Shown: in pieces, positions 5,588 through 31,634 of the stretch
How positions within the stretch are numbered: the stretch's first letter is position 1
Layout: every line of letters starts with the position of its first letter
Assembly (NCBI GenBank): GCA_965243205.1
Contig: CBDEUK010000001.1
Coordinates: 32,001 to 96,000 of the forward strand
DNA length: 64,000 nucleotides
Direction: 5' to 3'
Source: Gammaproteobacteria bacterium
GTDB lineage: Bacteria > Pseudomonadota > Gammaproteobacteria > Eutrophobiales > Eutrophobiaceae
Program-made: the position numbers and the translations under genes
The notes under the pieces: model-generated
Database searches by the model: none
What the model was told of the DNA's origin: nothing
Seen by the model: the letters and a program-made list of their open reading frames with translations, nothing else

Positions 5588-6022
5588 CTAACTCTCATTT
5601 GCATCAAACATGACAATATCGCCATCACCATAAACATCATCATCGTATATACCAGGCAACACACTTTCTGGTGTCATTTTAAGTTTTAAGTTTGCTCGCC
5701 AAATATTGCCGCGAACCAAACTGATATCTGGCTCTTCATCAATAAAAAATGTTGCAGGGCTATGTGTGCGAGGATGTATCCAGTCAAATGGAAGTGAGCC
5801 GCTAGCCAAAGTGTTGGTATAAAAATCGTCTAGAATAGCAGTCTCGTCATTTGTTAATTGAATGTGGCAATTAATTTCCCGTTCGCCAGCCGTGTATCGT
5901 CGCCTTCGTTTTGGCCCTCCGGCATCCATATCCGTTTTCAAAGTAAGCTCAGGAGGCTTTTCGCTTAAACCTTCAGAGGAAACATACTGAGGTAAAGTTA
6001 ATGGCCAAACCGCATTAGCCAC
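5588..6022 (-). CDS. Distal tail / minor tail protein
   Basis: WPLTLP, TDMDAGGPKRRRRYT, FYTNTLASGSLPFDWIHP; immediately after the tape measure gene. Confidence 0.75.
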   Translation of the reverse strand: MANAVWPLTLPQYVSSEGLSEKPPELTLKTDMDAGGPKRRRRYTAGEREINCHIQLTNDETAILDDFYTNTLASGSLPFDWIHPRTHSPATFFIDEEPDISLVRGNIWRANLKLKMTPESVLPGIYDDDVYGDGDIVMFDANES

Positions 6023-8345
6023 GGTTAATCACCTCTGGCTTATTGAAGTTTTCAAGCCGGCCTTGTCGTTTCTGACGCCCTAGCGAATTCGATACTTCAA
6101 GATCAATGATCTGTTCATTATTAGGACCAGTTGACTCGCCAGTTTTCTCTACTTTCGAATCCGAATTGTTAGTAATGTTAATAATGACATTACCTTTACC
6201 CAAGGCCTTCATTTGCCCTTTTGTAAATACCCCTTCGTCTTCATGAATAATCGCGCGCATTTCTTTTGGCATTAAACCTTGATGGAAACGTGGAGCATTA
6301 TTAAAGTTAGCTAGATTGTCTGGACGTGAAACACTGCCTTCACTGGCAAGACCACCACTATGAAAAAGTGGTATATGTGTAATTAAATTGGAAACGGGAT
6401 CGGTGCTAGTACCGCTTAAAACAAAACGATCAGGATCGTTACCTGAACCAAAAATACTTCCAAAACCACCTTCTAATAAATCACCTAACATATTAAAGCC
6501 AGGTTCGAATAATTTTGTTAAAGCTAGCTTCTCTATCTGCTTTAACAGACTTCCAATAAAATCAGAAAAATTGCCTTCCGATTCAACCAACTCATCAGCA
6601 AACGAACGACTCCACCCTTCAACGGCACGGCGTAAATCTTTAAATGTCTCTTCACCTTCTTTATCGATATCATCAAATTGTTTTTTGTGAATGTCGCTCA
6701 TACGCTCAGAATGCTGAAGCATTAAACGTTCTTTTAATTGAATGTATTCAGAATCACTGATTTCAGCCGTTGCATAAAAGCGATCAATCATGGCCAAAGT
6801 TTCATCGTAATGAGCGCGCTGCAATTCTTCTTCGGTAGCTAAGCCACGTCGCACTGTCTCTAAGTTTCTTTCTACTGCTTTGCGACGTTCTTCATATTCA
6901 CGCTTTAAATCTATATCAAGTTGCTGAAGAATTCTTTCATCTTCTAATGCATCTTGCTTAGCTTCACGCTCTGCTTTTAAACGTTCACGTTCAGCTTTAG
7001 AAGCATTTCGTTTAGCATCTTCTAAGGCTTTGACTTGATCTATTTCATCAGCTAACTGCAATAACCGTGTCGCATGTTGCGAACTAATTCCTCTAAGGGA
7101 ACCACTCTCGATTTCATTTCGAATACGCGCAGCCTCACTGACATTATTTAACGCAAACACCTGGCGTTCATATTTATCAATTAACTTAGCGCTTTGCTCA
7201 TCCAGCTTAGAAAGAGAGCCGCTTAGTCGTTGAGGCGTATCATCAAACTCAATATTGGAACCATTTAAAACATCCAAATGTTTTTTGAGTTCTACAGCTT
7301 CTTTTTTAAGCTCGGTAAGATTTTTTAATAATTGAGGGCGTCCACGAGTACGCTTTTGACTTAATCGATTTTCGATGCTGGCTATTTGAGACTCAACTTC
7401 TTTGAGTTTGTTTTCTGAAGCGCTTTGACTGAGTTCATTGATCTCAATATCAATCAAACCAATTTTGTCAGCAAGCGTCGTAAAGTTTTCAATTAAAGAA
7501 GTGGTAAACACTAATGTTTTATTGAATGCTGGAATTAATTCTTCGCCAAGCTCACTGGCTAGAATGAAAAAAGAATTTTTTAATCTATTTACATTAGCAT
7601 CAGTGCTATCCATTGCTGTTTCAAGATTCTCGCCAAAGGTGTTGCGAAGTTCCACAGCCATCTTAGGTAATAAATCATCCGCTAAGACAGAGCCCGAATC
7701 TAACATATCGTTAAGCTCTTGCGTGGTGACGCCCATAGCACGGGCAGCAATTTGGAATGCACCAGGTATACGCTCACCTAACTGACCACGTAATTCTTCA
7801 GCTTGAACATTACCCTTAGACATCATTTGCTCTATCGCACGAAGAGCGCCTTCAGTGTCGTAAGCACTAAGCTGTAAAGTACGTGAAGCCTCCATAACGG
7901 CTGTAAAAATTTCGCGTGTGGCTTCGCCTTCTAAGTTCGTCCCTTTACTTGCTGCAGTTAATTTAGCATAAGCACTAGCAGTGCTCTGTAATTCAAGACC
8001 TAAGCGTTCGGCTTCGCTTTTTACAAACAACATATTCGCTGCAGCTTCACCAGTATTATCGGAAGCAGCTAGCATTTGATTGTTCAAGCGCTCCATTTCA
8101 ATCGCTACAGGGATGACAGCATCAGCGTATCGCTTAAAAACTAAAGCAGCGGCACCTATGCCACCAGCCACCAAGCCAACACCAATAGCTAGCTTGGCCA
8201 TTCGGCTTTTTAAAACATTCGTTTTGCCGGCTAGGTTATCGCTTTCATTGGATAGACGCTTAGTTTCGCCAGTAGCCTTATCAATCTCCGTTGCGTACTG
8301 CTGACCATCCATAGTCAAAACCACTTTAATCTTTTTGTCTGCCAT
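6015..8345 (-). CDS. Tail tape measure protein
   Basis: Tape-measure motif ALRAIEQMMSKGNVQAEELRGQLGERIPGAF, long coiled coil, C-terminal FHSGG...EGVFT. ATG 8345 (MADKK) preferred because the track start lies at the terminator U-tract. Confidence 0.93.
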   Translation of the reverse strand: MADKKIKVVLTMDGQQYATEIDKATGETKRLSNESDNLAGKTNVLKSRMAKLAIGVGLVAGGIGAAALVFKRYADAVIPVAIEMERLNNQMLAASDNTGEAAANMLFVKSEAERLGLELQSTASAYAKLTAASKGTNLEGEATREIFTAVMEASRTLQLSAYDTEGALRAIEQMMSKGNVQAEELRGQLGERIPGAFQIAARAMGVTTQELNDMLDSGSVLADDLLPKMAVELRNTFGENLETAMDSTDANVNRLKNSFFILASELGEELIPAFNKTLVFTTSLIENFTTLADKIGLIDIEINELSQSASENKLKEVESQIASIENRLSQKRTRGRPQLLKNLTELKKEAVELKKHLDVLNGSNIEFDDTPQRLSGSLSKLDEQSAKLIDKYERQVFALNNVSEAARIRNEIESGSLRGISSQHATRLLQLADEIDQVKALEDAKRNASKAERERLKAEREAKQDALEDERILQQLDIDLKREYEERRKAVERNLETVRRGLATEEELQRAHYDETLAMIDRFYATAEISDSEYIQLKERLMLQHSERMSDIHKKQFDDIDKEGEETFKDLRRAVEGWSRSFADELVESEGNFSDFIGSLLKQIEKLALTKLFEPGFNMLGDLLEGGFGSIFGSGNDPDRFVLSGTSTDPVSNLITHIPLFHSGGLASEGSVSRPDNLANFNNAPRFHQGLMPKEMRAIIHEDEGVFTKGQMKALGKGNVIINITNNSDSKVEKTGESTGPNNEQIIDLEVSNSLGRQKRQGRLENFNKPEVINRG

Positions 8346-8361
8346 ATAAATTCCACGCATA

Positions 8362-8426
8362 AAAAAAGCCGGAGCCCCTTTCGAGGATCCGGCTTTTCGC
8401 TTTAAATACGTTATGCCTTAGTTCAG
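8362..8426 (-). terminator. Conserved 65-bp leader with intrinsic-terminator hairpin, copy A (in front of the tape measure gene)
   Basis: Minus strand CTGAACTAAGGCATAACGTATTTAAAGCGAAAAGCCGGATCCTC-GAAA-GGGGCTCCGGC-TTTTTTT; near-identical to 20453-20516. Confidence 0.85.
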
Positions 8427-8441
8427 TAAATTATAGCAAGA

Positions 8442-8711
8442 TTATTTCAAATCAGACCCGCAATATTTACATTTTATTGCTGCTTTTTTAATGATTTCAG
8501 CACAATAAGGGCATTCTTTCATGTCGCCATCTTGAACCCGCTGCTGTTCCAATTTTTCAGTATTCGTTTTTAACGCTGCTACGATAACAAGACCGAGTAA
8601 GGGAGATATGAACAAACACATGATGAAGGCTTTCAGCCCTGAGCGCCCTTTTTTATGAGCAAACACCGCTACAGCTGCAGACAACAAAAACCATAAAAAG
8701 AGAAATTCCAT
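8442..8711 (-). CDS. Moron-like membrane protein with C-terminal zinc ribbon
   Basis: Two TM helices and KECPYCAEIIKKAAIKCKYCG; strong RBS TAAGGAGG; extended -10-like TGATATAGT upstream; interrupts the chaperone-tape measure junction. Confidence 0.8.
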   Translation of the reverse strand: MEFLFLWFLLSAAVAVFAHKKGRSGLKAFIMCLFISPLLGLVIVAALKTNTEKLEQQRVQDGDMKECPYCAEIIKKAAIKCKYCGSDLK

Positions 8712-17832: not shown

Positions 17833-20433
17833 TTATATAGCTCTAACGACTCTCGCGCTTGAGCTGTATTGCATGATGGCTGTGTTAGCAGCTTTTAATT
17901 GAGTCGGTGTATGGCACACAACAAATTGGTCGCCATAAGCTTCTTTCTCGCCTGTGAAATCGCCATTTGCATCGCGAGCGTCTTGCAGTTGACCCATTTG
18001 CCAAGGTTTCATCATGCGGAACCTAGTAGTGTTACGTTCGCCGATCACTAAGTAACGATCACCCATGTGCAAGCCAGGCGCGTTCGATTCAAAGATAGGT
18101 ACGCCTTTTACCTTACCCAATGAACCCATTTCATTTAGGCTGGTGCCAGCTCTCGCAAAGTTTGCTGAAAAATCTCGGGCTTGCTCGACCGCCGTTTTAT
18201 AGGTTTCACTCATGATGCCAAGATCAGCGTTGTAGTAACGTTGGTTTTTGATCATGGATTTACGCAAACCAAGTCGATACAACCATTTACTCCAGTGGTC
18301 TTTAACATCAACTCCACCTGGCAAATCAGTATCAAACGCATAAAGGTTAGTTGCGTATGAATAGCTAACAACGATAGCAGTGGCATTGGCAGGAGTTTGA
18401 ACAACTCCATCTTCGTTAACCACGCTTAGCTCACCTAAGTCATAATCAAGCAAGTAATAATTACCTGCAGCTTGCTCACCAGTACCGTCATACTCAGATA
18501 ACTGTGAACCGCCCACGCTTACCGTCACAGGATTAACCGTATTGCCAACTTGATTACCTTTAAGATCAAACTCACTGCGAGGACGAACAACAGGGAAGTT
18601 ATCAAGGAGAAAAACATTATTGGTGCCGTTAACGTCGCCGCCAATGGCTTCGTTGGTAACAGCAACCGCTTGAAACTCTAGACACGCTTTCAAAATTTCA
18701 TTCATGATGATGTCTTCGAGATCTTCACGAATAATACGGATTGCATTTAAAGCGTTCTCTTGAACGATATCCCAGTTATAAATACTGGCTGCGGTCAAAT
18801 AACGAAGTTCATCAGAAATCTTGAAAGATAACTTTTGAGGGATTGGACGCGCTTCTTCACTGGTTTGAATCATGCCGCTTCGTTTAATGCCCTGCCCTTC
18901 ATACTTGCGGACTTTTCCTTTGCCAGCAGCAGAGGTGTCGCGATAAGAATAAGGAAGGTTTGCAATCGCATTAAAAGGGTATGTGCCAATATTAACAAAC
19001 CTTAATGCGTTAAGATCGTATAAGGCTTCACGAATAACGGTACGTTCGAAAATAGCTGGCACATCAACATCTGGTGTTTGAGCTTGGCCTCCAGCCAATG
19101 CAACAGCCTCTTCATGCAGTCGACCTGCATTTTCGGCGTCATACATAGCGACAGAACCTTCAACAAGATTGCGAACTTCAGGAGAAACGTTATCCATATC
19201 GCGCGCGCTTAAGCCTAAACGCCGGTCTGTAGTTTCTTGTAGTTCACGAATCGCATTTGAATCATCAATACTGATATGAGTATTTCCGTGAGGGCCGTTA
19301 AAACCTCGGTCAGCCAACTGCTGTGTTACTGACAATTGATTAGCAATCTTTAATTGGCTCTCTGCAAATTTCTTGACTTGTTCCTCAGTCATATCAGCAG
19401 TAATAAGATCGCTATCATTTAGCATGGCTTGATTTTCTTCACTCAAAGAAGTGAAGGTATCCGACGCACTTAATGTGTCGCTAAACAATTGCACATTGGC
19501 GTCTAAACGTTCCTGAGCTTGATCAGCTTCTGCAGCGGCTCGATTACGTTCATCTTCCATGAGTTGAAGAACTTCTTCTTGAGACAGGCCAGTCGTAACA
19601 GATAGATTGATAGGCTGACTAGGGTCGACAGAGCCTTCATTGATTTGCTCGGCAAGCAATAAGGCTGACTCTTCGATTGAATCTGCTAACGCTTGTGCCT
19701 GAGCTTCTTCAGTAAAGCCACTGCATTTGTTGATGAACTGATCGCAAAGTTTCTTAATCAGATCCTCGGATAAACCTTTAGCCCGCAGATTCTCTGCCAG
19801 CTTTTTGCGAATAATTTCCCACATCTTAGTAATCTCCTCTGAGAGAGCAATTTTAAATTGAGGCGAAACAGCGTATTCATCACCTTCTTCAAACTCGAAG
19901 CCGATGTTTTCTGAAAGACCTACCTCATCAGGATTAATAGGATCTAAACGTTTGACGCGGGGACGTATCGTTAACGCTGCGCCAACCAGTAAAGTGCCTT
20001 TTTTATCTTCGGTTTCGGGGTCTTTGTAGTCGTTGATAAACTCGACAGAGAAATAACGGAAGCCTTTATTGTGAATGGCATCTACGCCCAGCGCAGTCCA
20101 TTCAATATCACCGAATAATTTATTTCCGCTTCGAATATGCAGCTTATTAATGAACCCAGCGGCACCGTGCATGTCGCTATGAGAGATATTGATCGCAATA
20201 CGCTGACCATAAACATCTTCATTAAAGTTCTTAACCATTTCGCGCAGCATCGCGCGATCGATTTTTAACTCGCCATAAAACGGATCATCGGGATAAGTAA
20301 AAACACGAGTCAACATCACAGTACTGGTCTTACTGCCTTCGGCAAGGTCAACACGATCGGTGTACAAACGAATTGCATCACCCGCATAGTCTTCGAGACA
20401 GATTACCACTTGTGCTAAATGTGACTTGGTCAC
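17833..20433 (-). CDS. Prohead protease (Mu gpI-like) - scaffold - major capsid protein fusion
   Basis: N-terminal INISHS, WTALG, FRYFSVEF, GAALTIRP Mu-like protease motifs; acidic coiled-coil middle; capsid-like C-terminal half (ISDELRY, GKVKGVPIFES). GTG start with GGAG. Confidence 0.85.
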   Translation of the reverse strand: MTKSHLAQVVICLEDYAGDAIRLYTDRVDLAEGSKTSTVMLTRVFTYPDDPFYGELKIDRAMLREMVKNFNEDVYGQRIAINISHSDMHGAAGFINKLHIRSGNKLFGDIEWTALGVDAIHNKGFRYFSVEFINDYKDPETEDKKGTLLVGAALTIRPRVKRLDPINPDEVGLSENIGFEFEEGDEYAVSPQFKIALSEEITKMWEIIRKKLAENLRAKGLSEDLIKKLCDQFINKCSGFTEEAQAQALADSIEESALLLAEQINEGSVDPSQPINLSVTTGLSQEEVLQLMEDERNRAAAEADQAQERLDANVQLFSDTLSASDTFTSLSEENQAMLNDSDLITADMTEEQVKKFAESQLKIANQLSVTQQLADRGFNGPHGNTHISIDDSNAIRELQETTDRRLGLSARDMDNVSPEVRNLVEGSVAMYDAENAGRLHEEAVALAGGQAQTPDVDVPAIFERTVIREALYDLNALRFVNIGTYPFNAIANLPYSYRDTSAAGKGKVRKYEGQGIKRSGMIQTSEEARPIPQKLSFKISDELRYLTAASIYNWDIVQENALNAIRIIREDLEDIIMNEILKACLEFQAVAVTNEAIGGDVNGTNNVFLLDNFPVVRPRSEFDLKGNQVGNTVNPVTVSVGGSQLSEYDGTGEQAAGNYYLLDYDLGELSVVNEDGVVQTPANATAIVVSYSYATNLYAFDTDLPGGVDVKDHWSKWLYRLGLRKSMIKNQRYYNADLGIMSETYKTAVEQARDFSANFARAGTSLNEMGSLGKVKGVPIFESNAPGLHMGDRYLVIGERNTTRFRMMKPWQMGQLQDARDANGDFTGEKEAYGDQFVVCHTPTQLKAANTAIMQYSSSARVVRAI

Positions 20434-20452: not shown

Positions 20453-20516
20453 AAAAAAGCCGGAGCCTCTTTCGAGGATCCGGCTTTTCGCTTGAATACG
20501 TTATGCCTTAGTTCAG
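20453..20516 (-). terminator. Conserved 64-bp leader with intrinsic-terminator hairpin, copy B (in front of the capsid gene)
   Basis: Minus strand CTGAACTAAGGCATAACGTATTCAAGCGAAAAGCCGGATCCTC-GAAA-GAGGCTCCGGC-TTTTTT. Confidence 0.85.
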
Positions 20517-20538
20517 ATTAAATAATTAGCTTATTTGA

Positions 20539-20802
20539 TTAAGAAGTCAAGGGTTCTATCTTAATCTGTAGAGCTTTCTTTATGCGAGACTTATACTTTT
20601 CACACATGCTTTCATAGCTCTCAAGAATTTCGTCCTCATCATCAATATTTATAAATACATGAAATATATTTTCTTGCGTTTGATTAGAAGGGTTATAATT
20701 AATCAGATAAGTCGCTCCGTTCTGAACGACCCAAAAGCTAACAACAACATTATATCCGTCTATATTCATAATGGCTGATATTGTAATGGAACTGTCACCC
20801 AT
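20539..20802 (-). CDS. AT-rich hypothetical protein (moron-like)
   Basis: 87-aa ORF overlapping the Com-like gene; no recognisable motif. Confidence 0.5.
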   Translation of the reverse strand: MGDSSITISAIMNIDGYNVVVSFWVVQNGATYLINYNPSNQTQENIFHVFINIDDEDEILESYESMCEKYKSRIKKALQIKIEPLTS

Positions 20803-20957
20803 TTAGTACAACGACATTTAGCATTAGCTTGTCCATCAGGGTTAATACGAATTACTCGGGACTTAACCACTATGCCGTCAAATAATTCCCTATCACAATA
20901 AGGGCAATTAACTTTTGGTCTTGGGCCTGACTCAATTAGATTATTCACCGTCGTCAT
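20766..20957 (-). CDS. Com-like (Mu Com family) zinc-finger regulator
   Basis: CPYCDRELF...AKCRCTKWV resembles Mu Com CxxCxKLLF...RCPRC; ATG 20957 after GGAGG; 63 aa. Confidence 0.6.
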   Translation of the reverse strand: MTTVNNLIESGPRPKVNCPYCDRELFDGIVVKSRVIRINPDGQANAKCRCTKWVTVPLQYQPL

Positions 20958-21081
20958 CAACTTCCTCCAAATCACCTTCTACTTCACCAACTTCTTGCAA
21001 ATAAGCAAGCTCGGCGTTATCTCTTGTCAAACCAAACGCTTTCATGAGTTCGTTTATACGTTTTTCTTTTTCTTCGATCAT
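20941..21081 (-). CDS. 46-aa acidic protein, candidate MuF-toxin immunity (absent from the ORF track)
   Basis: ATGA overlap with the MuF stop; MIEEKEKRINELMKAFGLTRDNAELAYLQEVGEVEGDLEEVDDDGE. Confidence 0.55.
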   Translation of the reverse strand: MIEEKEKRINELMKAFGLTRDNAELAYLQEVGEVEGDLEEVDDDGE

Positions 21082-22922
21082 TTTAGCCATCCTTTTTTTA
21101 TAAAAAGCCTATCCATTGCATCGGCAATTGGTTGAAAATCATCTTCATCCCATTGGGTCATAATAGGGATAGGGCTGCGCTTTCTTGCGTCTATCTCAGC
21201 TTTTGTTTGTTCTAACAAAAACTCATCCCCTGAGCGAATTGCGATGTATTGAGAATAGCTCCGCGCCCATAATTCCTCGGTCTCCAAAAGATATTTTAAA
21301 TGCTTTTTAGGTACTGTTAAGCCATCAATTCTCCGAGGCCCCCGAAATAAACTAACTAGCCCTTTGATCGCTTTAGATTTCGCAACCGATTCTCTCCAGT
21401 CATTAAAATCGCTGTCATGCGTAGAAGAGAAGTCTTTTGACCCAAAAGCTTGATGATCAATAAAATGGCCTATCTCATGAACTAAAGTAAGCTCCTTATG
21501 TTCGCCGGAACTTCTTATTTCAATATCGATAGCTCTTCCATTCGTCATATATCGGTAACTACCAAAAGATTTACGTTTTCGAGATTTAACAATTTCAATA
21601 ACCGGTAAATCACCATCACCATGAACACTGTCAATAGCCTTAAGAACTCTGTCCGTTTCACGCTTAAAAGCCTTTGCCTGCAGTGCCCCAGAAACTGGAG
21701 CTCCAAGAGTCGCAAATGTTTTAGGTTGCGCCAAATCTAAAGGCACTGGTGCGACATTAAGATTATTAGTGTTAATGCCTTTTTTCTCAAAACGGACTTT
21801 TAAAATTTTCCACGGCGTGGTTATTTGATTTGTTTTAAGTAAACCAGCCTCAAGCGCTGCGCGTTTTTTTCTACCAAGTATTTGCTCTTGTGTAGTACCA
21901 GATTGCCGTTTTAACCAAGCAATAGGATCTTCTTTAGTTTTACGATCGATATCATCTACTTCGTCAGTAAAAACAACTTCGATAAAGCTTAAGGTATTCG
22001 GGTGAGCGGGATAAGGGTTTTTGCCTTTAGGGTAAACGCCATTACCTAAACCATAACGATTTATGTTCGCATGCATGTCACATATATCTGGACGTGGGTG
22101 TAAATGTGATAATAAAAAACGTGTGCCAGCTGTATCATCTAATTCAAACACTGACTCTTCATAGGCTTTGTTATGTGCTCGGTTTATTTCAGTACGAAAC
22201 ACACGCAAAACATTATTGTATGGATTACCCTCACCGGTCATTAATAGCTTGCCAACTTCATCAGCAATGCTTGAAGATTTAGCTTTTTTTAATTTTTGTT
22301 GAACATCAAAAGGAATAGACTCCCCGCGACTTAAAAAACTTTGCGCAGCTTCGCTAGCAGAGGTGCCTTGTATAACGGCAGATTGAATTGCCGTTCCAAT
22401 AATCTCTCGTGCATGATTATCAATACGCCATAAACGATCGGATAACTGTAAACCATCATCAGCAATAAAATTTTGCACAAATAAAACAGCGTCTTCAGCA
22501 ATGCCTCCAAGATCAACATTTATCGGCTCATCAATGACAGGCTCAACTCCTAACCTAGCCGCGGCAACCATCTTATCTGTTAAAAGTTCGTTACGTGAAA
22601 CGTATAACTGATTTAATCTGGAATTAACATTGTTAAGCAGCTGCTGCAGCTGCTCGCGTCGCACCGTATCACCGGCGGATTCAATTTGTTGTTTTATATC
22701 GTCGCGCGCCTGTTCATAAGAGCGAGCGAGTTCGTTGATAGTGTCAGAATCAAGTTGATCAATTTGATCTTGAGCAAATTGAGAAGCGCGTTTTATTTTT
22801 GCTTTTCTAGCTGTCGGCCCGCTTTCCATGAGCACAACAGCCGCATGACCGTACAAGCTAATGACTAAAGCTATTATTAGAAAACACGCAAAGCTCTTCA
22901 GCCATTTCAGGGTTTTCTGCAA
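21078..22922 (-). CDS. Minor head morphogenesis protein (MuF / SPP1 gp7-like) with C-terminal HExxH metallopeptidase-like domain
   Basis: LSDRLW, RVFRTEINRAH, DICD, PAHPNT MuF motifs; LVHEIGHFIDH and ELWARSY in the C-terminus. True start probably downstream (for example ATG 22829). Confidence 0.8.
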   Translation of the reverse strand: MQKTLKWLKSFACFLIIALVISLYGHAAVVLMESGPTARKAKIKRASQFAQDQIDQLDSDTINELARSYEQARDDIKQQIESAGDTVRREQLQQLLNNVNSRLNQLYVSRNELLTDKMVAAARLGVEPVIDEPINVDLGGIAEDAVLFVQNFIADDGLQLSDRLWRIDNHAREIIGTAIQSAVIQGTSASEAAQSFLSRGESIPFDVQQKLKKAKSSSIADEVGKLLMTGEGNPYNNVLRVFRTEINRAHNKAYEESVFELDDTAGTRFLLSHLHPRPDICDMHANINRYGLGNGVYPKGKNPYPAHPNTLSFIEVVFTDEVDDIDRKTKEDPIAWLKRQSGTTQEQILGRKKRAALEAGLLKTNQITTPWKILKVRFEKKGINTNNLNVAPVPLDLAQPKTFATLGAPVSGALQAKAFKRETDRVLKAIDSVHGDGDLPVIEIVKSRKRKSFGSYRYMTNGRAIDIEIRSSGEHKELTLVHEIGHFIDHQAFGSKDFSSTHDSDFNDWRESVAKSKAIKGLVSLFRGPRRIDGLTVPKKHLKYLLETEELWARSYSQYIAIRSGDEFLLEQTKAEIDARKRSPIPIMTQWDEDDFQPIADAMDRLFIKKGWLK

Positions 22923-23103
22923 TTGACTTAAAAGTCTTGTCTATATTCAAAATAGATTCCTGTCTGTGCTTCCTAACCTCATTAAAGGCATCTAAAATTT
23001 CTTGTTTCATTTCAGGAATCATTAAATCAGGCTGTTCACTAAGGATACTTAAATATTGTGATAAAGCCTTTTCGCATATATTCAATGTTCTATCGGTTAT
23101 CAT
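22858..23103 (-). CDS. Phage hypothetical protein
   Basis: RBS AGGAG; fills the gap between portal and MuF genes. Confidence 0.55.
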   Translation of the reverse strand: MITDRTLNICEKALSQYLSILSEQPDLMIPEMKQEILDAFNEVRKHRQESILNIDKTFKSIAENPEMAEELCVFSNNSFSH

Positions 23104-23111
23104 ATTAACTC

Positions 23112-24494
23112 CTATTTATTACTCACATCGGTCGCACTTTCTTTTTTCTTCGCGTTCCCTGGTGTTATTTTCACACTACGCGACCCAATTCCGTCTTCAT
23201 AAGTTGGGTAAGGATCTCCCCCTTCGAGCTCATCTGTCAAACGTTGCTTTTCTTTAGCTGGAACAAGTCCCATAGTTTCAAAAACAGTGGTTTTACTTGC
23301 GCCGCCCGCTTGCTGTTTCAAGGCTCTGTCGGTTGCCTGGTTAAGAGTTTCAGTAACTCGTTCGTTAAACTCAACTTTTACACCATGATTACGTGGATCA
23401 ATATTGTTTAACAACAACTCAAGCTCAAAACCTTCTTGATAAACTGCAGACAGCTCGTCTTGCATGGAATCCACTTCTTCAAAAAAATCACGTTTCATGT
23501 CTTCTAGTACATCACGCGAAATATTTTGCGCGTAACCAAACAAGGCCTTTGGAGCAGGCGCACCAGTAAAAAAAGTATCAACTAAATAAAGAACATCGTT
23601 TATCTGATCTAAGTTTTCATCGCCTTGTAATGCGCCTACAGCACCTTTTTTATTTAGAAAATAATCGAGATCAATAGCTTGAGTTTTTCTTCTCTGTTCG
23701 ACGTCGTTTTTGTAGGCTTCCAATTCTGCTTCAGTAGCTCCTTCAAGCACATGAACTTTTTGAGATGGAGCTCTGTCGTGTCTTCGAATAACTAAATCTT
23801 CATCCGTCAAAGTCATTTTCTTAAATATTGTCATTGCTGCATCGAGCATCGGTCTACCCATGCAACCTAAATCATCATAGTTATCTGGATCCAGCCTACC
23901 GTGAGATATTTGCCATAAAGGAAAAGAAGCTATCTTCTCGCTAGTCATAGCATCTAGTTGATGGTAAGCAGTTTGTATGTCTTTAAATATGCCATTCTCA
24001 CTCACATCAGGAATCATTGTTTCGCTGGGCATGCGCACCGCATTCCATATTTTATTATCTGCGCCTAAAACCCACTGCAAAAACAAATTGCCTTCCTTTA
24101 TGTAGCCACTAGCATCAGACATAAGTTTGGCTCTGTTACCAAGGCCTAGTCGATATGAAAAGTCATCCCAAATTTTTAATACTCGTTTATTATTGTCTTT
24201 AACGTTGCAACGTAATCCTGACTTTGTCATAACAGTACTAGTTTTTCTGTGAATCCGTTTGCAACGCGGATCCTTCCGGTCCATATCTCTAATAGACAAA
24301 ACAATATTACGAAAATTAGAATCGACCCAAAGGAGACGATATAAATACTGCATTCGATTTTCAGGATTTGGACGGTAACCAAGTTCGCCAGGTAAGTTAT
24401 TAACCTGGTTAGAAATCTTTGAGTCACTAATGGACTTATTACCAACTTTAAACAGCTCTCTTAACTGTCGAAATTGAGAAGAATAACTTTTCAT
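23112..24494 (-). CDS. Portal protein
   Basis: 460 aa directly after TerL; YIKEGNLF, GRPMLDAA and helical C-terminus typical of portals. Confidence 0.8.
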   Translation of the reverse strand: MKSYSSQFRQLRELFKVGNKSISDSKISNQVNNLPGELGYRPNPENRMQYLYRLLWVDSNFRNIVLSIRDMDRKDPRCKRIHRKTSTVMTKSGLRCNVKDNNKRVLKIWDDFSYRLGLGNRAKLMSDASGYIKEGNLFLQWVLGADNKIWNAVRMPSETMIPDVSENGIFKDIQTAYHQLDAMTSEKIASFPLWQISHGRLDPDNYDDLGCMGRPMLDAAMTIFKKMTLTDEDLVIRRHDRAPSQKVHVLEGATEAELEAYKNDVEQRRKTQAIDLDYFLNKKGAVGALQGDENLDQINDVLYLVDTFFTGAPAPKALFGYAQNISRDVLEDMKRDFFEEVDSMQDELSAVYQEGFELELLLNNIDPRNHGVKVEFNERVTETLNQATDRALKQQAGGASKTTVFETMGLVPAKEKQRLTDELEGGDPYPTYEDGIGSRSVKITPGNAKKKESATDVSNK

Positions 24495-24497
24495 AAC

Positions 24498-26096
24498 TTA
24501 CCCCGTACCGGCGTTTGGTAAAGCCGGTGTTTTTTCAATCATATTTTCTCGTGTAGTACTACTATTTAAGATCACAGTTTGAATTGTAGCAATACCACGA
24601 GTATATAAAGCCCAGTAAGCGACAATGAAGGCATCAAACAAATCATCGCCAACTTTTGAATTTACCATCTTATAACTTGCATAAGTTGCTTTTGTTTCTT
24701 CAGCTCTAATATTAGCCAATTGTCTAACCAATAACACTAACCCAGATAAAGCTGGATCGTTTGCATGAAAATCTTCAAAGTATGGAATCGCAATTTGTCT
24801 ATTACGGAATGCCTGGCTAGCAACAACTGCCATAGAATGTTTTTGCATACCTTGAAACTGCACAGGAGAAAAAGCCCACTCATTCCATGAACTAGCGGTG
24901 CTATTACCATCATTTATAGCTTGGCGATTGATGTTAATTAAATTTTCATTGAACAAAACATCATTAACATGCCCGATTAAACCTATGCCAAAGGCATCGC
25001 CCATACCGTAATCTGGATTAAAATATCGCCACAACTCAACCAAATCTCTTTCAATAACCGCCTCATCTGTACCAGGTGGCCATGTGCGCGCATAGATAAC
25101 ACAAGTAAAACTTCCTAGTTGCTCTAAAATAATAACGGCTGATTTAGATGACTCTGGTTTTTCACCATGCCCTGTATGGTCATAACCAATTGAAATAAGT
25201 CCTCGTTTTTTATACTTCACACCTGGCAATGGTTCTGCGAGCTGTATATCAGCCATTAAACCAGTCACCATTGCAATACGAATAAACTTCTCCCAAATTA
25301 AATTTCGTGATGTGACATTTTTACAAAGTAGCTGACGAATATATTCTTCTGAGGAAAGTTCTTTACGCATATCTTCCATAAAGTTTTTATGCAGTATCCC
25401 CATCTCTATACCAAGATGAACGTTAACTAATGGCAGCTGACGATATAAACCAGAATCAATTAAACCTTGCAAAGTATCAGCGCCTTTAAAAACGCCAGTA
25501 ATCCGAATTTGAGGCGGCTCATCGGCTGAGCTTTCAATAGCGCCTAATCTTCTTGTTGAGCCCAGCATTAAAAGGAAGCGCGAATACAAGCGATCGCTAG
25601 GCATGTCATCAACTTCTTCTAGTGATGCGCAAGTTAAATCGCCGCCATCCACATTAGCCATGATGCCGTAACAATGCGCACGCGACTGATTTGCAAACAT
25701 ATAGTATGTGTCTGCGATTTGCCTGCGTCCGCCTTTATGATCGATATAAGCCTCTAAAATCTGTGAGCGACGAATAGCATCCAAATGATAATCAAGGTTT
25801 ACCTTAGACTGGGCCTCGCGTGGAGCGACAATCCCTAATGACTGATCGGGCTGCGTTGAATTTTTCTTAAGACAGTACAGTTCTTTTATTGCTGTTTTAC
25901 CCGTCCGCCTACAAGAGTTATCCACGGTGTTAGGGCTTTCGTCCATTTCAATGCACTTAAGGATTTGCATGGGATCTAAGGTCACATTATGGACATACTT
26001 GTGCCACAAAGCATGATCGTGTTTATATTTTTGAACCTCGACTTCAGCAAGGTTACGCATTTCAATTCGTTTGGTACGTGAAATACGATTAGCCAT
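24498..26096 (-). CDS. Terminase large subunit
   Basis: Walker A SCRRTGKT, Walker B-like ASLEEVDD, RNase H-like IGYDHTG and GDDLFDA. Confidence 0.88.
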   Translation of the reverse strand: MANRISRTKRIEMRNLAEVEVQKYKHDHALWHKYVHNVTLDPMQILKCIEMDESPNTVDNSCRRTGKTAIKELYCLKKNSTQPDQSLGIVAPREAQSKVNLDYHLDAIRRSQILEAYIDHKGGRRQIADTYYMFANQSRAHCYGIMANVDGGDLTCASLEEVDDMPSDRLYSRFLLMLGSTRRLGAIESSADEPPQIRITGVFKGADTLQGLIDSGLYRQLPLVNVHLGIEMGILHKNFMEDMRKELSSEEYIRQLLCKNVTSRNLIWEKFIRIAMVTGLMADIQLAEPLPGVKYKKRGLISIGYDHTGHGEKPESSKSAVIILEQLGSFTCVIYARTWPPGTDEAVIERDLVELWRYFNPDYGMGDAFGIGLIGHVNDVLFNENLININRQAINDGNSTASSWNEWAFSPVQFQGMQKHSMAVVASQAFRNRQIAIPYFEDFHANDPALSGLVLLVRQLANIRAEETKATYASYKMVNSKVGDDLFDAFIVAYWALYTRGIATIQTVILNSSTTRENMIEKTPALPNAGTG

Positions 26097-27042
26097 TCCC
26101 TTCGCTCTGCTCGTGCTCGATTAATATCGGGTCGTTATTTGTAGCTTCCTGGCTTTTTTTAATCAAAGCTTTCATGTCGTCCATAACGCCTAATGTTTTT
26201 TGACTAAAATCTTCTAATGATTCATTAGCGTTTGGTTTAGCTGCATCAAGAAAACCTTTCATAGCTTCTTGCTCATCCTGAACTTTTGGCGTCATTTCCA
26301 TATCCGCTAAAGTCATAGAGTTTTTATTAATAAAATCGATTAATGGTTTTAGTAGAGGGTGAGCTTTCTTTTCAGTTACTCTAACCATGCGCCCAAGGCC
26401 AGCATCGTAATATGAGACCAACTGAAAGCCTTCGTCCTTAACATAAGTCCATACAGGATCCTCTACTCGTGGCCCGCCATCCTGAGCAATGGTCAAAATC
26501 ATATCGTTTATTAAACCCTGAATAGCCGCTTGAGTATCAGCGCGCAATCCCATCAACATGCTAGGGTCTTTAGTGTCGAAAGCGATATGATGCTTCATGA
26601 ATAATTCGACTCGCTTCAAGCAGGCCACTTCTTGACTGCAAATACTCTCTCTTAATTCACAGCCATCACATTGAGGATATTTGCCAGGTCTGGCGGGAAA
26701 ATAGTCGGCAACCTTTGCATGCAACCCGTGCTTCATAGCATTGAAACGAGTAATCAGAGTTTCCTCTGGAGTAGGATGCCCTTCGAGATTAGCTGCTGAC
26801 GCCGCCTTGCCCGCTACAGTCTTAGGTCCGGTCGCGTGCGCATGAGCTTTTAAAAGGTTTTGATCCCAGTAAGCCTGTTCGCATTGCTCTTTGCATTGAG
26901 GACAATTCCCATAATAGAAATAAGGATGGTAATCCCGTTCGGGATATTCCTCGATAAGATCGGGCTTTTTCTTGAAACTAATTTTGCAGTCAGGACAATA
27001 AAAAGTTACCTGATTACGTACCGAAATGTTAGAATTATCCAT
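26089..27042 (-). CDS. Terminase small subunit (HGGxSTG-related, Cys-rich)
   Basis: ATGPKTVAGKAAS and FNAMKHGLHA motifs; CPDC, CPQC and CDGC zinc ligands; overlaps the TerL start. Confidence 0.7.
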   Translation of the reverse strand: MDNSNISVRNQVTFYCPDCKISFKKKPDLIEEYPERDYHPYFYYGNCPQCKEQCEQAYWDQNLLKAHAHATGPKTVAGKAASAANLEGHPTPEETLITRFNAMKHGLHAKVADYFPARPGKYPQCDGCELRESICSQEVACLKRVELFMKHHIAFDTKDPSMLMGLRADTQAAIQGLINDMILTIAQDGGPRVEDPVWTYVKDEGFQLVSYYDAGLGRMVRVTEKKAHPLLKPLIDFINKNSMTLADMEMTPKVQDEQEAMKGFLDAAKPNANESLEDFSQKTLGVMDDMKALIKKSQEATNNDPILIEHEQSEGNG

Positions 27043-27108
27043 ACCTTAGAGCAGGCGGATACAAATTAACCGGCAAAGGTATAACAATAGATTTTGTTCC
27101 TAGTGTGG

Positions 27109-27124
27109 CTGTCTTGGGGAGCCA
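27109..27124 (+). other. tRNA 3'-end fragment (tRNA-Asn-like), candidate prophage att site
   Basis: CTGTC-TTGGGGA-G-CCA fits T-stem 3' strand, acceptor strand, G discriminator and CCA, followed by a terminator. No T-loop or rest of a tRNA upstream. Confidence 0.55.
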
Positions 27125-27128
27125 AATT

Positions 27129-27164
27129 AAAAAAGGGTTTCATAATGAAACCCTTTCTTGTTTT
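27129..27164. terminator. Bidirectional intrinsic terminator, copy 1
   Basis: AAAAAAGGGTTTCA-TAA-TGAAACCCTTTCTTGTTTT. Confidence 0.8.
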
Positions 27165-27224
27165 ATAAACTCAGTATTTTTTAAAAATACCTGCTTTGAG
27201 ATTTACTAAAAGTGCTCTGCCTCC

Positions 27225-27626
27225 TTAATTATAATTACTAATTGAATCGCAGTATGAGGGTGCAAGCAATAATGTGCTATTTTTATTGAAATTAATTATT
27301 AATAATTCATGATTTTTTGTATATTTTCCTTTCAATAAAGTATCAAACAATCTTGGTTTTAAATATTCATTTTTTAAATGATGTGGAAATTTATATTCAA
27401 AAAGTTTTTTTTCAGCGGTTTTTATCCTAAAACAATCAAAATTAAAAGGGACCTCTTTTTGTTCTCCTGAATTAATAGAATCTAGTTTAACTTTAGAATA
27501 TATAGAAATAATAAAAATTTCTTTATTAGTTTCATTAGCTAAAATTAACTTAGAATTAATGGCACACCCAGACAGTAATATAAATAAAAACCAAATAGAC
27601 ATTAAATGTTTAGCAAATAAATACAT
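27225..27626 (-). CDS. Lipoprotein, putative Rhs immunity protein
   Basis: Lipobox LSG-C after a hydrophobic stretch; very AT-rich; start overlaps the Rhs stop. Confidence 0.7.
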   Translation of the reverse strand: MYLFAKHLMSIWFLFILLSGCAINSKLILANETNKEIFIISIYSKVKLDSINSGEQKEVPFNFDCFRIKTAEKKLFEYKFPHHLKNEYLKPRLFDTLLKGKYTKNHELLIINFNKNSTLLLAPSYCDSISNYN

Positions 27627-30600
27627 TAAAACACTGTATCTTGCATCGGCCCTGTTTCCATAAAATTATTTTGATGCCATTTATCAACTGGATGCAATAA
27701 ATCAGGATGTGGTTCTCTAAAAATTGAAGTCATCCCACCAATAATATGAGAAGGGAAATAAGCTGGGCCCAGAATCTGAGATTGTAAGGTATGTCTGAAC
27801 TCCTCACCATAAACTGTAAAATCTGTTGGAGTTTTTAAGAAATGAACATTCGATGAATCAGGTGATACATTCTGTCCATAAATAACAGCATTTCCAAATG
27901 TCATAGCTGTTGCCATCAGTGGATTATTTGTAAATTGCACAGCATTATTCTCAAATGTGATATTAGGATTAGTATTCATTGCTAATCCTACAAGATGACC
28001 AATACCTCCGTAAGTTAAACCTACAATTGTATTTGGCCCTGCCCATATTTTACTAGCAACGTCTAATGATCCTCTAAAAACTTTTCCTTCAAAATTATAA
28101 CCACTATTTGTACCATCTAATTGCAATGTAGAATTATATTTAAATGCTGCATTTGCAAATGAAAATGCGGTAGATGATTTGAAGCCATCTAAGAAGTCAC
28201 CACCTTCTAGCTCCGAACGAGCACCACCAATTGTACCATTAGCCAATACTCTAGAAGCACTCCATGTATTTCCAAAATATGATTTTACTCCGCCTAAAGC
28301 CGCTCCAGATAAACCACCTAATACTCCACTCTCTAAATCTCCACCTGTAATTGCTCCAAACACAAACCCACCTGTTGCGCCACCAATAATATTTGCTACA
28401 GTAAACGCGGCCTCTAAAGTTATTGCACTACCAGATGCAATAGCCCCAGCAGCAAAATCTAATGCTGCATTATAAGCTAACCCTCCCGTATACCATGCAG
28501 TAACGCCTATAACTAATGCATTTATTAATGAGTTCCCTCCTGTAATTTTATTTAATGTGCTATTTATAAAACCAAGAACTCCATCTATCACATCAGTTAC
28601 AAAATCAATTATATCATCCCCGATTGTTACAGCTACAATAGCAGCAGCAATAAGACCAATAATGAAATGCCCGCTTGGATCGGTAAAACTCAACGGATTA
28701 TTATTTACATAAGTGTATCGATTAAAGTTTTGCTGAACTTCTGGGTATTGTATAAATGGATCTGGACTTAAGAAGCGCCCTAAGTCAGGGTCATACACAC
28801 GACCACCCATGTGAATGAGACCCACATCATCTAAGTATTGATGCCCAGTAAAACATCGGTTGGTTTCACTCGAGAACACTTGTGCTATGGCATCATCCCA
28901 GGTCGGTTGACGACGCTTACCATGTGGGTCATAACTTAAACTCTCAGCAACACCTGCCGTCTCATCCGTAATAGCTGTTATCGAACCTAAATGGTCTCGA
29001 TGTAAATAACGCGTCTCTTCTGTATCATTGTTAGTACTCGAAATATCATCAATCGATTTAAACAGGCCAATCGTTTGACCACCCGCTTTTAAATAATGAA
29101 TATAAGTGGTTTTACCTACCTTGCCGTCTATCTCAAACACCGAGTTCACATACGTACGGATTTCAGATGGATTCGAACCATTCGTCACCGTTTGTTGCAC
29201 CATCTCCCGACTCGCACCGTACTTAAACGCAATGTTGGTAGAACCTTGATCGATTTGTAATGGCTTGTTGTAACTGCTCCACGTTATGGTGCGCGTAGCG
29301 CTTGCAGTAAAATTATAGTTTTGTGTGACGTTACCGTTCGCATCATAGAGAACGTTATGACCACCGATCGATGTCACCGCATGTGGACGTGGACCACCAT
29401 AAATATACGTACCACTGACACCCGTCTTAGTTTTAATATTACCTAACGCATCATAGGTGTAGTTTTTTATCGTCCCGTTAAGAACGCTTTGTTTAATACG
29501 ATTCAAATCGTCGTATAAAAAACTTTCTGTATTGGTCTGAGTAATGTCTTCACGTTCAGTTAAGTTACCAATGACATCAAATGTGAACGTTAAGTCTTGA
29601 ATGTTATTGACCAACGCAGGTGAGCTCGTACCAATCGCATTCACCAAACCCGTCTCCGGTGTATACCCCATGTTGGTGATCACACCATTGTCGTATTTTT
29701 GTTTGGTCACCTTACCTTCGGCATCCATCAACATCACGGTGTAATACTCTTCCGTGATGTCATCGGCGTTATAAACCAAATCCAGATAACCGCGTGCATT
29801 GTATTGATGTTTGACTTTCAAACGGCCACTATCATGCGCCCGTTGTGGATAGGTAATGACATCGACTCTGCCTGAACTGTCGTAGGTTTGTTCTTGAACA
29901 TGTGTACCCACCACACCCGTGATGGTGGTTGAGGTCGAACTCAACCGACCGTAACCATCGTACACATAACTCTCATCTTTGCCTTCAGCCGAACTGACAC
30001 TAATGAGTTTGCCAATCGAGTGTGCTGTTTGACCCGCCGCGTAGTTACTGCCACTCGCATAGTCATACACCCATGTTGATGTTCCTTCGGCTTCGACTCT
30101 CTGCGTCATGCGACCTAACTTATCATAGGTCATTGTCACCGTTTGACTCTTTGCATCCGTTTGACTCACCAACTCACCTAAGGCGTTGTAGGTATAACTC
30201 CAGATACCCATATCCGGGTCATCCATACCCGTCTTACGACCGCGTAAGTCATATAGATTCGTCGTTGTGTTGTTATTGCTATCGGTTAGCGTCCTTAAGT
30301 TACCAAAGGGTTCATATTCATAGGTAGCGATATTGTTGAGATTGTCTTCAGTTGATACCAACTGTCCAATCGCATTATTGGTACGAGTATTAGTTTGACT
30401 TAAAAAAACATTGGTCTCGCTGACCGACAAACCGACATAACTCGTAGTAGTTTCAACACCGTTCACATGATCTGGATGCGGCGCGATGCGTTTAACTGAA
30501 CGACCCACCACATCGTATTCAATTGCGTGCCAGTAACTGGTACTACCCGCGTAGTATGGACGAGATTTGGCCACTACTTGACCCAACTGATTGTATTCCG

Positions 30601-31516
30601 TATCAACGTATATCAACGTACCATCAAAGCCTTGGCTTTGAACTCTCAACTCACGACCTAAGGCATCTGAATACGCCACACTAGTTGGAGCACCACTAGC
30701 TTGAGTCGTAACCGATAATGCACCGTTCAATGGACATGCAGTATTGCCACTTTCTCCCTGGAAGCCATGACACCATTCTCGCGTCACGGTGGTCGACGTG
30801 CCATCGGCCCTAACCTCACTCGTTTGACGGCCAAATGAGTCATAAACCCATGTCGTCATTAATTGATTTGGACCTGTTAAGGTCTTCATCACACCAAACT
30901 TCGCATCATAGGTTCGAGTTTCATTGTGGCCCAACGCATTTGTCGTGCTAATTGCAAATTGACCACGCGCATCATACATTGTCGTTGTCGTACGTGATGC
31001 AATAGCAGTAGCTCCGCTTCCACCAGTTACTGTCACACTGGTTTTATTACCAAATGCCACAGTATCGTATCCATAAGTTGTTTCCAGTCGTAATGACGGA
31101 GTGTCAGGTTCGATAATTTCTTTACTTAATAAACCATTTGCGTTGTATTCAAAACTCGATGTACGAGTACCGCAGGTTCCTGTCGTTGGATCAGAATTTG
31201 AACACGTACCGTCTCTCGGATCACCATTGCTTGGTAGATACTGAGTCACCTCGGTTCTTTGCAGCCTATCTAAAAACCATTGAGTTTCATTAGGCGGATA
31301 ATACTGATTAGCCGTATAAGTAGTGTGCGTATCACCATTGCATGTCGTATCTTTACATGTAGTTGAAACCGTAATGGTAGTGGGATTACCGTGATCATCA
31401 TAACTAGTGGTAGTTACCACCTCACTTACTTTGCTACTGGTCGCTGCAAACACTTGCCCTGCAAATAAGAAAAGTAAAGCAATAATAAATTGAGTAACTA
31501 GATTATAGCGTTGCAT
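27626..31516 (-). CDS. RHS/YD-repeat protein with Rhs core and C-terminal toxin; own signal peptide
   Basis: YD repeats; core YLHRDHLGS...GLIHMGGRVYDPDLGRFLSPDP...NPLSFTDPSG. ATG 31516 with RBS AAGGAG and signal MQRYNLVTQFIIALLFLFAGQVFA. Confidence 0.92.
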   Translation of the reverse strand: MQRYNLVTQFIIALLFLFAGQVFAATSSKVSEVVTTTSYDDHGNPTTITVSTTCKDTTCNGDTHTTYTANQYYPPNETQWFLDRLQRTEVTQYLPSNGDPRDGTCSNSDPTTGTCGTRTSSFEYNANGLLSKEIIEPDTPSLRLETTYGYDTVAFGNKTSVTVTGGSGATAIASRTTTTMYDARGQFAISTTNALGHNETRTYDAKFGVMKTLTGPNQLMTTWVYDSFGRQTSEVRADGTSTTVTREWCHGFQGESGNTACPLNGALSVTTQASGAPTSVAYSDALGRELRVQSQGFDGTLIYVDTEYNQLGQVVAKSRPYYAGSTSYWHAIEYDVVGRSVKRIAPHPDHVNGVETTTSYVGLSVSETNVFLSQTNTRTNNAIGQLVSTEDNLNNIATYEYEPFGNLRTLTDSNNNTTTNLYDLRGRKTGMDDPDMGIWSYTYNALGELVSQTDAKSQTVTMTYDKLGRMTQRVEAEGTSTWVYDYASGSNYAAGQTAHSIGKLISVSSAEGKDESYVYDGYGRLSSTSTTITGVVGTHVQEQTYDSSGRVDVITYPQRAHDSGRLKVKHQYNARGYLDLVYNADDITEEYYTVMLMDAEGKVTKQKYDNGVITNMGYTPETGLVNAIGTSSPALVNNIQDLTFTFDVIGNLTEREDITQTNTESFLYDDLNRIKQSVLNGTIKNYTYDALGNIKTKTGVSGTYIYGGPRPHAVTSIGGHNVLYDANGNVTQNYNFTASATRTITWSSYNKPLQIDQGSTNIAFKYGASREMVQQTVTNGSNPSEIRTYVNSVFEIDGKVGKTTYIHYLKAGGQTIGLFKSIDDISSTNNDTEETRYLHRDHLGSITAITDETAGVAESLSYDPHGKRRQPTWDDAIAQVFSSETNRCFTGHQYLDDVGLIHMGGRVYDPDLGRFLSPDPFIQYPEVQQNFNRYTYVNNNPLSFTDPSGHFIIGLIAAAIVAVTIGDDIIDFVTDVIDGVLGFINSTLNKITGGNSLINALVIGVTAWYTGGLAYNAALDFAAGAIASGSAITLEAAFTVANIIGGATGGFVFGAITGGDLESGVLGGLSGAALGGVKSYFGNTWSASRVLANGTIGGARSELEGGDFLDGFKSSTAFSFANAAFKYNSTLQLDGTNSGYNFEGKVFRGSLDVASKIWAGPNTIVGLTYGGIGHLVGLAMNTNPNITFENNAVQFTNNPLMATAMTFGNAVIYGQNVSPDSSNVHFLKTPTDFTVYGEEFRHTLQSQILGPAYFPSHIIGGMTSIFREPHPDLLHPVDKWHQNNFMETGPMQDTVF

Positions 31517-31634
31517 AGCGTCTCTCCTTAAGACCGGTGCTGTTGCAAATACATTTTTAATAACATTAAATTGAAAAAATGATTGGGCTTTAAAAATCAA
31601 ATCCAGTGTATTAAGTGAGTTCTGTTTCATGACA

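Follow-up and report, generated by a model that had tools for sequence, protein, structure and literature searches.

In a 64,000-nt stretch of gammaproteobacterial DNA (the window), a gene for a 63-aa zinc-finger protein lies near one of two copies of a leader, which raises the question of what the protein does to these leaders. The first-pass annotation had seen in it a Com-like protein without a mom gene, acting in trans on both leaders and so coupling capsid and tail-tip expression to transcription from the terminase end of the operon. The gene is harboured by a prophage of about 46 kb at tRNA-Asn (G000 C1 about 12,720-59,124). On the minus strand, the order is a putative terminase pair, portal, minor head, a 49-aa ORF, the zinc-finger gene, an 87-aa ORF, leader 1 and a protease-capsid fusion, followed further on by an 89-aa zinc-ribbon membrane ORF, leader 2, the tape measure and tail-tip genes (Table 1). 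Portal and minor head were named from library matches, both terminases from position, without a library hit, and the capsid part of the fusion from size and position. Small accessory-looking genes (window 20539-20802 and 8442-8711) directly precede both leaders. In the reading favoured here, with a probability of about 0.62, the zinc finger is a BglG/RAT-like antiterminator of the capsid and tape-measure operons and not a Com-like translational activator.

Table 1. Features of the window that bear on the zinc-finger gene and the two leaders
Feature	Position	Strand	Remarks
Tape-measure gene, then tail-tip genes	6015..8360, start more likely 8345	-	PF20155, PHROGs
Leader 2 putative intrinsic terminator	8361..8397	-	U7
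Leader 2 putative antiterminator hairpin	8391..8417	-	-5.2 kcal/mol
Leader 2 promoter-like site, extended -10 TGnTATAAT	8430..8438	-	read from sequence
Mu-like protease-major capsid fusion gene, first behind leader 1	17833..20433	-	PF10123, phrog_328
Leader 1 putative intrinsic terminator	20453..20488	-	-22.8 kcal/mol, U6; 7 nt in common with antiterminator
Leader 1 putative antiterminator hairpin: 3 bp, 4x4 A-rich internal loop, 3 bp	20482..20507	-	-5.8 kcal/mol
Leader 1 putative promoter, sigma70-like TTGACT-17-AATTAT	20522..20550	-	consensus match only
Zinc-finger gene	20766..20957	-	63-aa C4 zinc-ribbon protein, candidate RNA-binding antiterminator; homodimer predicted
Upstream operon, runs into zinc-finger gene	21078..27042	-	putative small and large terminase, portal, minor head
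Copy of tRNA-Asn 3' end, likely prophage boundary	27109..27124	.	66 nt upstream of first operon gene

The ORF starts with ATG, has GGAGG 6 nt upstream and overlaps the neighbouring ORFs. Its product carries CPYC-DR-ELF ... KCRC, the motif described at first except that two residues (DR), not one, separate CPYC and ELF. Judged by its conservation it is a real gene and not a chance frame, because phmmer against 1.84 billion representatives at 50% identity gave 93 matches at E<=0.001. The family alignment comprised the 77 short members, and 16 others were left out: 4 longer or doubled forms, a single fragment and 11 long proteins in which several short stretches matched. Cysteines C18, C21, C48 and C50, predicted to bind zinc, are conserved in at least 90% of the 77 aligned members, DG, R and W-x-x-x-P positions are conserved as well, and two of the relatives occur naturally as tandem doubles. 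Where members have a name at all, it is "hypothetical", and annotated phages gave no homologue of the protein at E<=1. Searches of Pfam, NCBIfam and PHROGs with the family returned weak generic zinc-ribbon matches only, there were weak matches to polymerase subunit P models, and the leads from the ESM Atlas were clusters without a name and, at 0.92-0.93 with fewer than 170 shared features, DUF8260/DUF8106. In 17 of 18 viral loci (the 18th stops just past the gene) and in 3 of 3 genome loci, the gene has the minor head gene on one side and the capsid gene on the other; among 18 metagenome loci, several of which duplicate viral or genome loci, one is rearranged and two are without a flanking match. 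By these matches and positions, it represents an unannotated, predicted C4 zinc-ribbon family of a temperate phage family, sited between minor-head and protease-capsid genes. The putative small terminase (window 26089-27042, 317 aa) also has an N-terminal CxxC...CxxC finger with further cysteine clusters; it had no library hit and is conserved in 19/19 relatives.

The AlphaFold model of the 63-aa protein is a confident beta zinc ribbon (pLDDT 87). A PDB sequence search returned generic zinc ribbons only, and fold searches gave no clear match (best E 0.41 with PDB Foldseek and 0.044 with BFVD, best Z 2.5 with VIA), which does not show a new fold. A homodimer was predicted with a score of 0.71 against 0.07 for the best control, with 93% agreement of contacts and pLDDT 88; 20 of 30 solved homodimers and 1 of 23 monomers reached the mark used, counts that are rough since a custom alignment and zinc were used. 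The predicted interface, residues 28-38 and 55-63, is formed by an insertion of about 10 residues and the C-terminal strand, parts without counterpart in Com.

As to Com itself, the resemblance proposed earlier held as a distant one and membership did not. Against PF10122 the 63-aa protein had no match at E<=1, whereas Mu Com scores 36.8 bits, above the cut-off of that model, and PF10122 was absent among the matches listed for the 77 members (25 of 56 families). Com-type PHROG families matched 4/77 and 2/77 members, all at E>=0.0007. The PF10122 search found none in the host genome and likewise none in 14 control genomes; the same model matched in 19/251 genomes of another search. Comparison by hhalign with a 23-row Com alignment gave a probability of 93 and a pairwise E of 3e-7, with the knuckles aligned and a gap of about 10 residues, and 39% with Mu Com alone. 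Com rows scored 4-15 bits on the family HMM and other host cysteine ORFs up to 9.4; the cross-scores are thus barely above those of unrelated ORFs, and the family therefore appears to be at most a distant relative of Com. In the ESM Atlas, no Com cluster was among the matches listed. The absence of a mom-like gene was borne out for the whole 2.79-Mb genome, where a Mu Mom search gave nothing at E<=1, and no mom or other modification gene was found directly downstream of the zinc finger. One relative (G844, L203) bears both a true Com gene and the zinc-finger gene with its leader; downstream, that Com gene adjoins what we take, from its motifs, to be a Dam-like methylase.

The leader copies (20453-20516 and 8362-8426) are 95% identical over 65 nt and are the sole strong copies in the genome, as blastn found no further one and the RNA model gave 2 matches at 62-65 bits, the next best at 23. 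Both their duplication and the 250-bp distance had been described correctly: from the stop codon of the zinc-finger gene to position 20516, where the repeated block starts, it is 250 nt, with the 87-aa ORF between. The pattern shared with other phages was first noticed upstream of the capsid gene in loci selected by the protein, from which a descriptor was built. Its 5' part begins with GGY, a 4-nt loop and 3 bp and, across a variable spacer that often forms a hairpin, continues with another 3 bp, a second 4-nt loop and GCC; its 3' part is a variable stem closing on GGC and then a U-run. The 3' arm of the weak hairpin formed by the 5' part is the 5' arm of the U-tailed terminator; 7 nt are shared, and the two computed folds are mutually exclusive. 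In the window, the lowest-energy fold computed for the first 36 nt of the nascent RNA is the weak hairpin (-5.8 kcal/mol); taken alone, this hairpin is not stabler than shuffled sequences (z -1.2 and -1.0). The descriptor occurs directly before the capsid gene in 32/32 protein-selected loci, a count that includes duplicates, and has no match on the opposite strand; in capsid-selected loci without the zinc-finger protein it occurs in 0/6. Descriptor matches in L106 and L115 and one on the minus strand of L078 were rejected for poor geometry and lack of RNA-model support.

Forty-five distinct leaders, chosen with the descriptor, which requires pairing, were aligned by sequence alone. In the antiterminator, 90.7% of cells are paired with 8 double changes, and 0/500 shuffles were as high on that measure; pairing in slid controls was 16-30%, and two of five covariation measures were borderline (29/500 shuffles). 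The terminator is 89.2% paired with 75 double changes, kinship among the leaders inflating both double-change counts. RNAA stands in both strands of the internal loop in 37/45 leaders; this pseudo-symmetry is two-fold, as would suit a dimer. In 36/45 leaders, a -35-like box is found 30-55 nt upstream (shuffles: mean 9, maximum 18), and a U-run of 4-8 is found in 45/45. Extra copies precede tape-measure genes far from the zinc-finger gene: the 15 genes downstream of such copies comprise 7 tape-measure, 4 other tail, adaptor or lysis-type and 4 unannotated genes. Rfam gave no match over the leaders, and the duplicated leader is a conserved RNA uncatalogued there, with both folds covarying. In the available part of Fremin's catalogue, only DNAVirus_7413 is listed ahead of Mu-like protease genes; this RNA is from Firmicutes and without a terminator.

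The position of the hairpin relative to the gene start bears on whether the mechanism of Com applies. In Mu, according to the available text of PMC6483171, the inhibitory stem includes the mom start codon. The likeness to Com/mom as far as it is described there comprises a length of about 60 aa, four cysteines, a similar knuckle pattern, a phage origin and presumed hairpin binding. The zinc-finger family differs in lying under the PF10122 cut-off and in the insertion of about 10 residues that forms the predicted dimer interface, and, against the same partial description, in lacking mom and the GAG(N)2CC motif and in a putative target that is a terminator. A Com-like action here would mean that ribosomes can load once the protein, bound to the leader, has opened the large hairpin, and both the profile resemblance to Com and the closeness of the hairpin end to the ribosome-binding site, in a stretch predicted to be only about 44% unpaired (median), speak for it. 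Nevertheless, the start codon is left outside the stem, 18-28 nt beyond it, in all 33 leaders with a called start (of 45), unlike the Mu stem as available in that source, and the U-run is always there. In addition, the Com RNA motif, GAG(N)2CC / CC(N)2-3GAG, occurs in 7/45 leaders against a shuffled mean of 9.4 and in 0/2 window copies. Translational activation is therefore considered distinctly improbable, and a Com mechanism gained no support. An out-of-frame ATG at window 20440, 7 nt ahead of the capsid GTG, begins a frame of 20 codons; it is an unlikely start because it is too near the ribosome-binding site.

Whether the leader occurs without the gene was followed across phages in 80 of the 208 viral loci retrieved with the capsid protein, with a query alignment mostly from gene-bearing phages. 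The relevant interval was visible in 57 of the 80, the other 23 being cut short or rearranged. Gene and leader were both present in 22, the gene without a leader at 20 bits in 6, neither in 29 and the leader alone in 0 (19, 4, 24 and 0 after collapsing at 90% identity). For 17 of the 22 leader-positive loci an identical or near-identical leader was already in the RNA-model training set, an overlap that leaves the absence in the 29 unaffected. Five of the 6 without a scored leader (among 28 gene-bearing loci) still have a hairpin that is U-tailed but altered in its 5' half, and their proteins are divergent too; the sixth, L142, is without a terminator. Among whole records at least 90% complete, the leader was found in 15/16 with the gene, 4 of these 16 having been found via gene or leader, and in 0/19 without it, where one weak match was a plain terminator. 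Weak RNA-model matches in G506, G529 and G809 were likewise plain terminators, and G477 has a match of 25 bits on another contig. This co-occurrence makes the zinc finger very probably the trans-acting partner of the two leaders, as had been proposed.

Many relatives without the zinc finger have another leader upstream of the capsid gene, a long hairpin whose pyrimidine-rich loop is of the CTCGCTCGCTCC or CTCCTCC type and which has a U-tail in some (L085, L090, L094, L099-L101, L105-L107, L109, L113, L002, L003, L007, L008). A search for an antisense partner of this type gave no consistent match nearby in 29 loci. The L139 provirus, which was ineligible for the count, is deleted for the interval between mid-portal and the capsid leader, which takes in minor head and zinc finger, and keeps a variant terminator leader.

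Gene and leader might also be linked and yet independent, the leader being a promoter with a leaky terminator or responding to another factor, from host or phage, with the zinc finger serving in head assembly. Since the gene and the first leader are neighbours, linkage accounts for part of the pattern; the gap between zinc finger and capsid leader varies in relatives from <0.1 to about 8 kb, with varied insertions. On the capsid tree (46 rows), joint absence needs 5 changes, and the few independent contrasts also leave room for this explanation: 4 of the 5 go the same way, 0 the opposite and 1 shows no difference (p 0.125), which is consistent with pairing but not significant. Moreover, the small inserted genes that precede both window leaders are common sites of terminators. 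Second copies at least 10 kb away are, however, likewise absent from records without the gene, a plain terminator would not need the conserved competing hairpin, and with a host factor 0/29 would not be expected. Other phage factors were covered by comparing 230 prophage ORFs with hand-chosen records, 10 with both gene and leader and 9 with neither: only the zinc-finger gene fits the split (10/10 vs 0/9), and therefore the prophage encodes no better candidate. No other prophage gene tracks the leader, including an ORF outside the window (G000 C1 26415-26693), which from its sequence we take to be CsrA-like (2/10 and 0/9). Protein divergence also tracks leader divergence (rho 0.81, n=22; 0.77 once the capsid score is removed), both scores being distances from sets built around the window. 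Independence of the two is considered unlikely on this balance.

Leader RNA and zinc-finger gene are thus probably a conserved regulatory pair. On the basis of the two conserved folds computed, of the features of the terminator and of the distribution that gene and leader share, we infer promoter activity, termination, binding and read-through in the following form. Each leader would be driven by its own sigma70-type promoter, and its first 35 nt fold, by computation and with covariation, into the weak hairpin with the pseudo-symmetric RNAA/RNAA internal loop. When the protein is absent, the far stronger terminator would capture the shared AAAAGCC arm, and transcription would halt before the capsid or tape-measure gene. 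The predicted zinc-finger dimer, a product of the terminase operon, would bind the internal loop and stabilise the hairpin, and polymerase would read through. The protein would probably switch capsid and tail genes on in this way, by blocking a stop signal. Packaging genes would come first and capsid and tail genes afterwards, the internal promoters remaining silent in the lysogen. Since the zinc finger is encoded in the terminase-portal-minor head operon, expression of the capsid and of the tape-measure and tail-tip genes would depend on that upstream operon; the coupling to terminase-end transcription imagined at first may thus stand, via the protein, and not via one long transcript, because the leaders have their own putative promoters.

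The closest known arrangement is that of BglG and SacY, in which, according to the available text of PMC5393181, a dimer holds a weak hairpin that overlaps the terminator by 6-10 nt. As in the BglG/SacY/LicT systems (CAT dimer, RAT hairpin) so far as described there, a hairpin with an internal loop overlaps the 5' arm of an intrinsic terminator, here by 7 nt, and the partner is a small RNA-binding protein, with binding and dimer both predicted in the present case. Unlike in those descriptions, a zinc ribbon replaces CAT, no PRD sensor domains are present, there is one 4x4 loop without an Rfam match where RAT has two loops, and virion genes would be controlled, presumably by protein supply. Neither CAT nor PRD domains were matched in the 63-aa protein by Pfam or NCBIfam models. 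An even chance is given to the fuller description of the pair, in which a dimeric zinc-ribbon family, distantly akin to Com, reads the pseudo-symmetric, A-rich internal loop as a stand-alone, site-specific antiterminator timing capsid and tail genes. No paper on the pair was found in the open-access literature, and it is not described in the available parts of PMC10690425 (including part of its supplements), PMC5737381, PMC2965389 and PMC11658703.

The late control known from temperate phages is otherwise exerted by antiterminators that load through DNA (Q) or by initiation activators (Ogr, Mu C). Lambda Q acts processively from one promoter (PR'-tR'), and P2 Ogr and P4 Delta are small C4 zinc-finger late regulators, of which Ogr activates initiation via DNA upstream of the promoter. 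The zinc finger could similarly act on the leader in another manner, by N-like processive antitermination after loading on polymerase via the hairpin, by Ogr-like activation on DNA or even by favouring termination. Zinc-ribbon folds frequently contact RNA polymerase, which together with the weak matches to polymerase subunit P models counts for such an action. The leader has in common with PR'-tR' a promoter and then a terminator ahead of late genes, but it recurs ahead of every block and includes a competing RNA fold, and a copy for each gated block would be superfluous for a processive factor. Ogr and Delta share the small C4 finger and the existence of tandem doubles, but the conserved element here is transcribed, its distance to the -35 box is variable (30-54 nt) and the motif covaries as RNA. 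The Ogr family had no match to the 63-aa protein at E<=1. Only a slim chance is left to these other actions, and stabilisation of the competing hairpin by the protein is preferred.

The prophage boundary bears on the supply of the protein. The insertion at tRNA-Asn was located at window 27042-27165 and G000 C1 12660-12735, the operon begins 66 nt from the boundary and a host terminator-like hairpin precedes it. Since the operon starts so close to the attachment site, provision of the zinc finger may hinge on excision, by which the operon would be joined to the early operon; this is a guess. The first terminase gene is the start of many provirus records of the phage family. Contigs of a sample that is probably the source, taken from three of its runs, agree with the stretch and contain no joint. 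The serine-recombinase ORF ends within the tRNA gene, so excision would alter the recombinase C-terminus; besides it, two ORFs (G000 C1 14709-15734 and 27679-28275) that presumably have tyrosine-recombinase folds are kept in 19/19 relatives. An 11-nt match to the 5' block of the family leaders (window 27075-27085, plus strand) is aimed outward towards the attachment site; it is without the rest of the leader motif and may be chance. Host genes with RHS repeats and SpvB/FG-GAP domains lie at window 27626-34298, the second with a 162-nt tandem repeat.

What is new here, as far as sequences tell, is probably a variant of protein-dependent antitermination, made up of an unannotated protein family and an uncatalogued RNA. 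The system is small (63-aa protein, 70-nt RNA) and easy to test, and natural variants of both partners permit swaps. If the antitermination reading is true, a zinc-finger-run RNA switch of the RAT type would add a further route of late-gene control, and a function would be given to an unannotated protein family and to an RNA family absent from Rfam. It would also suggest Com-like fingers as late-gene gatekeepers beyond mom, and protein and leader together would make a portable transcription switch of very small size.
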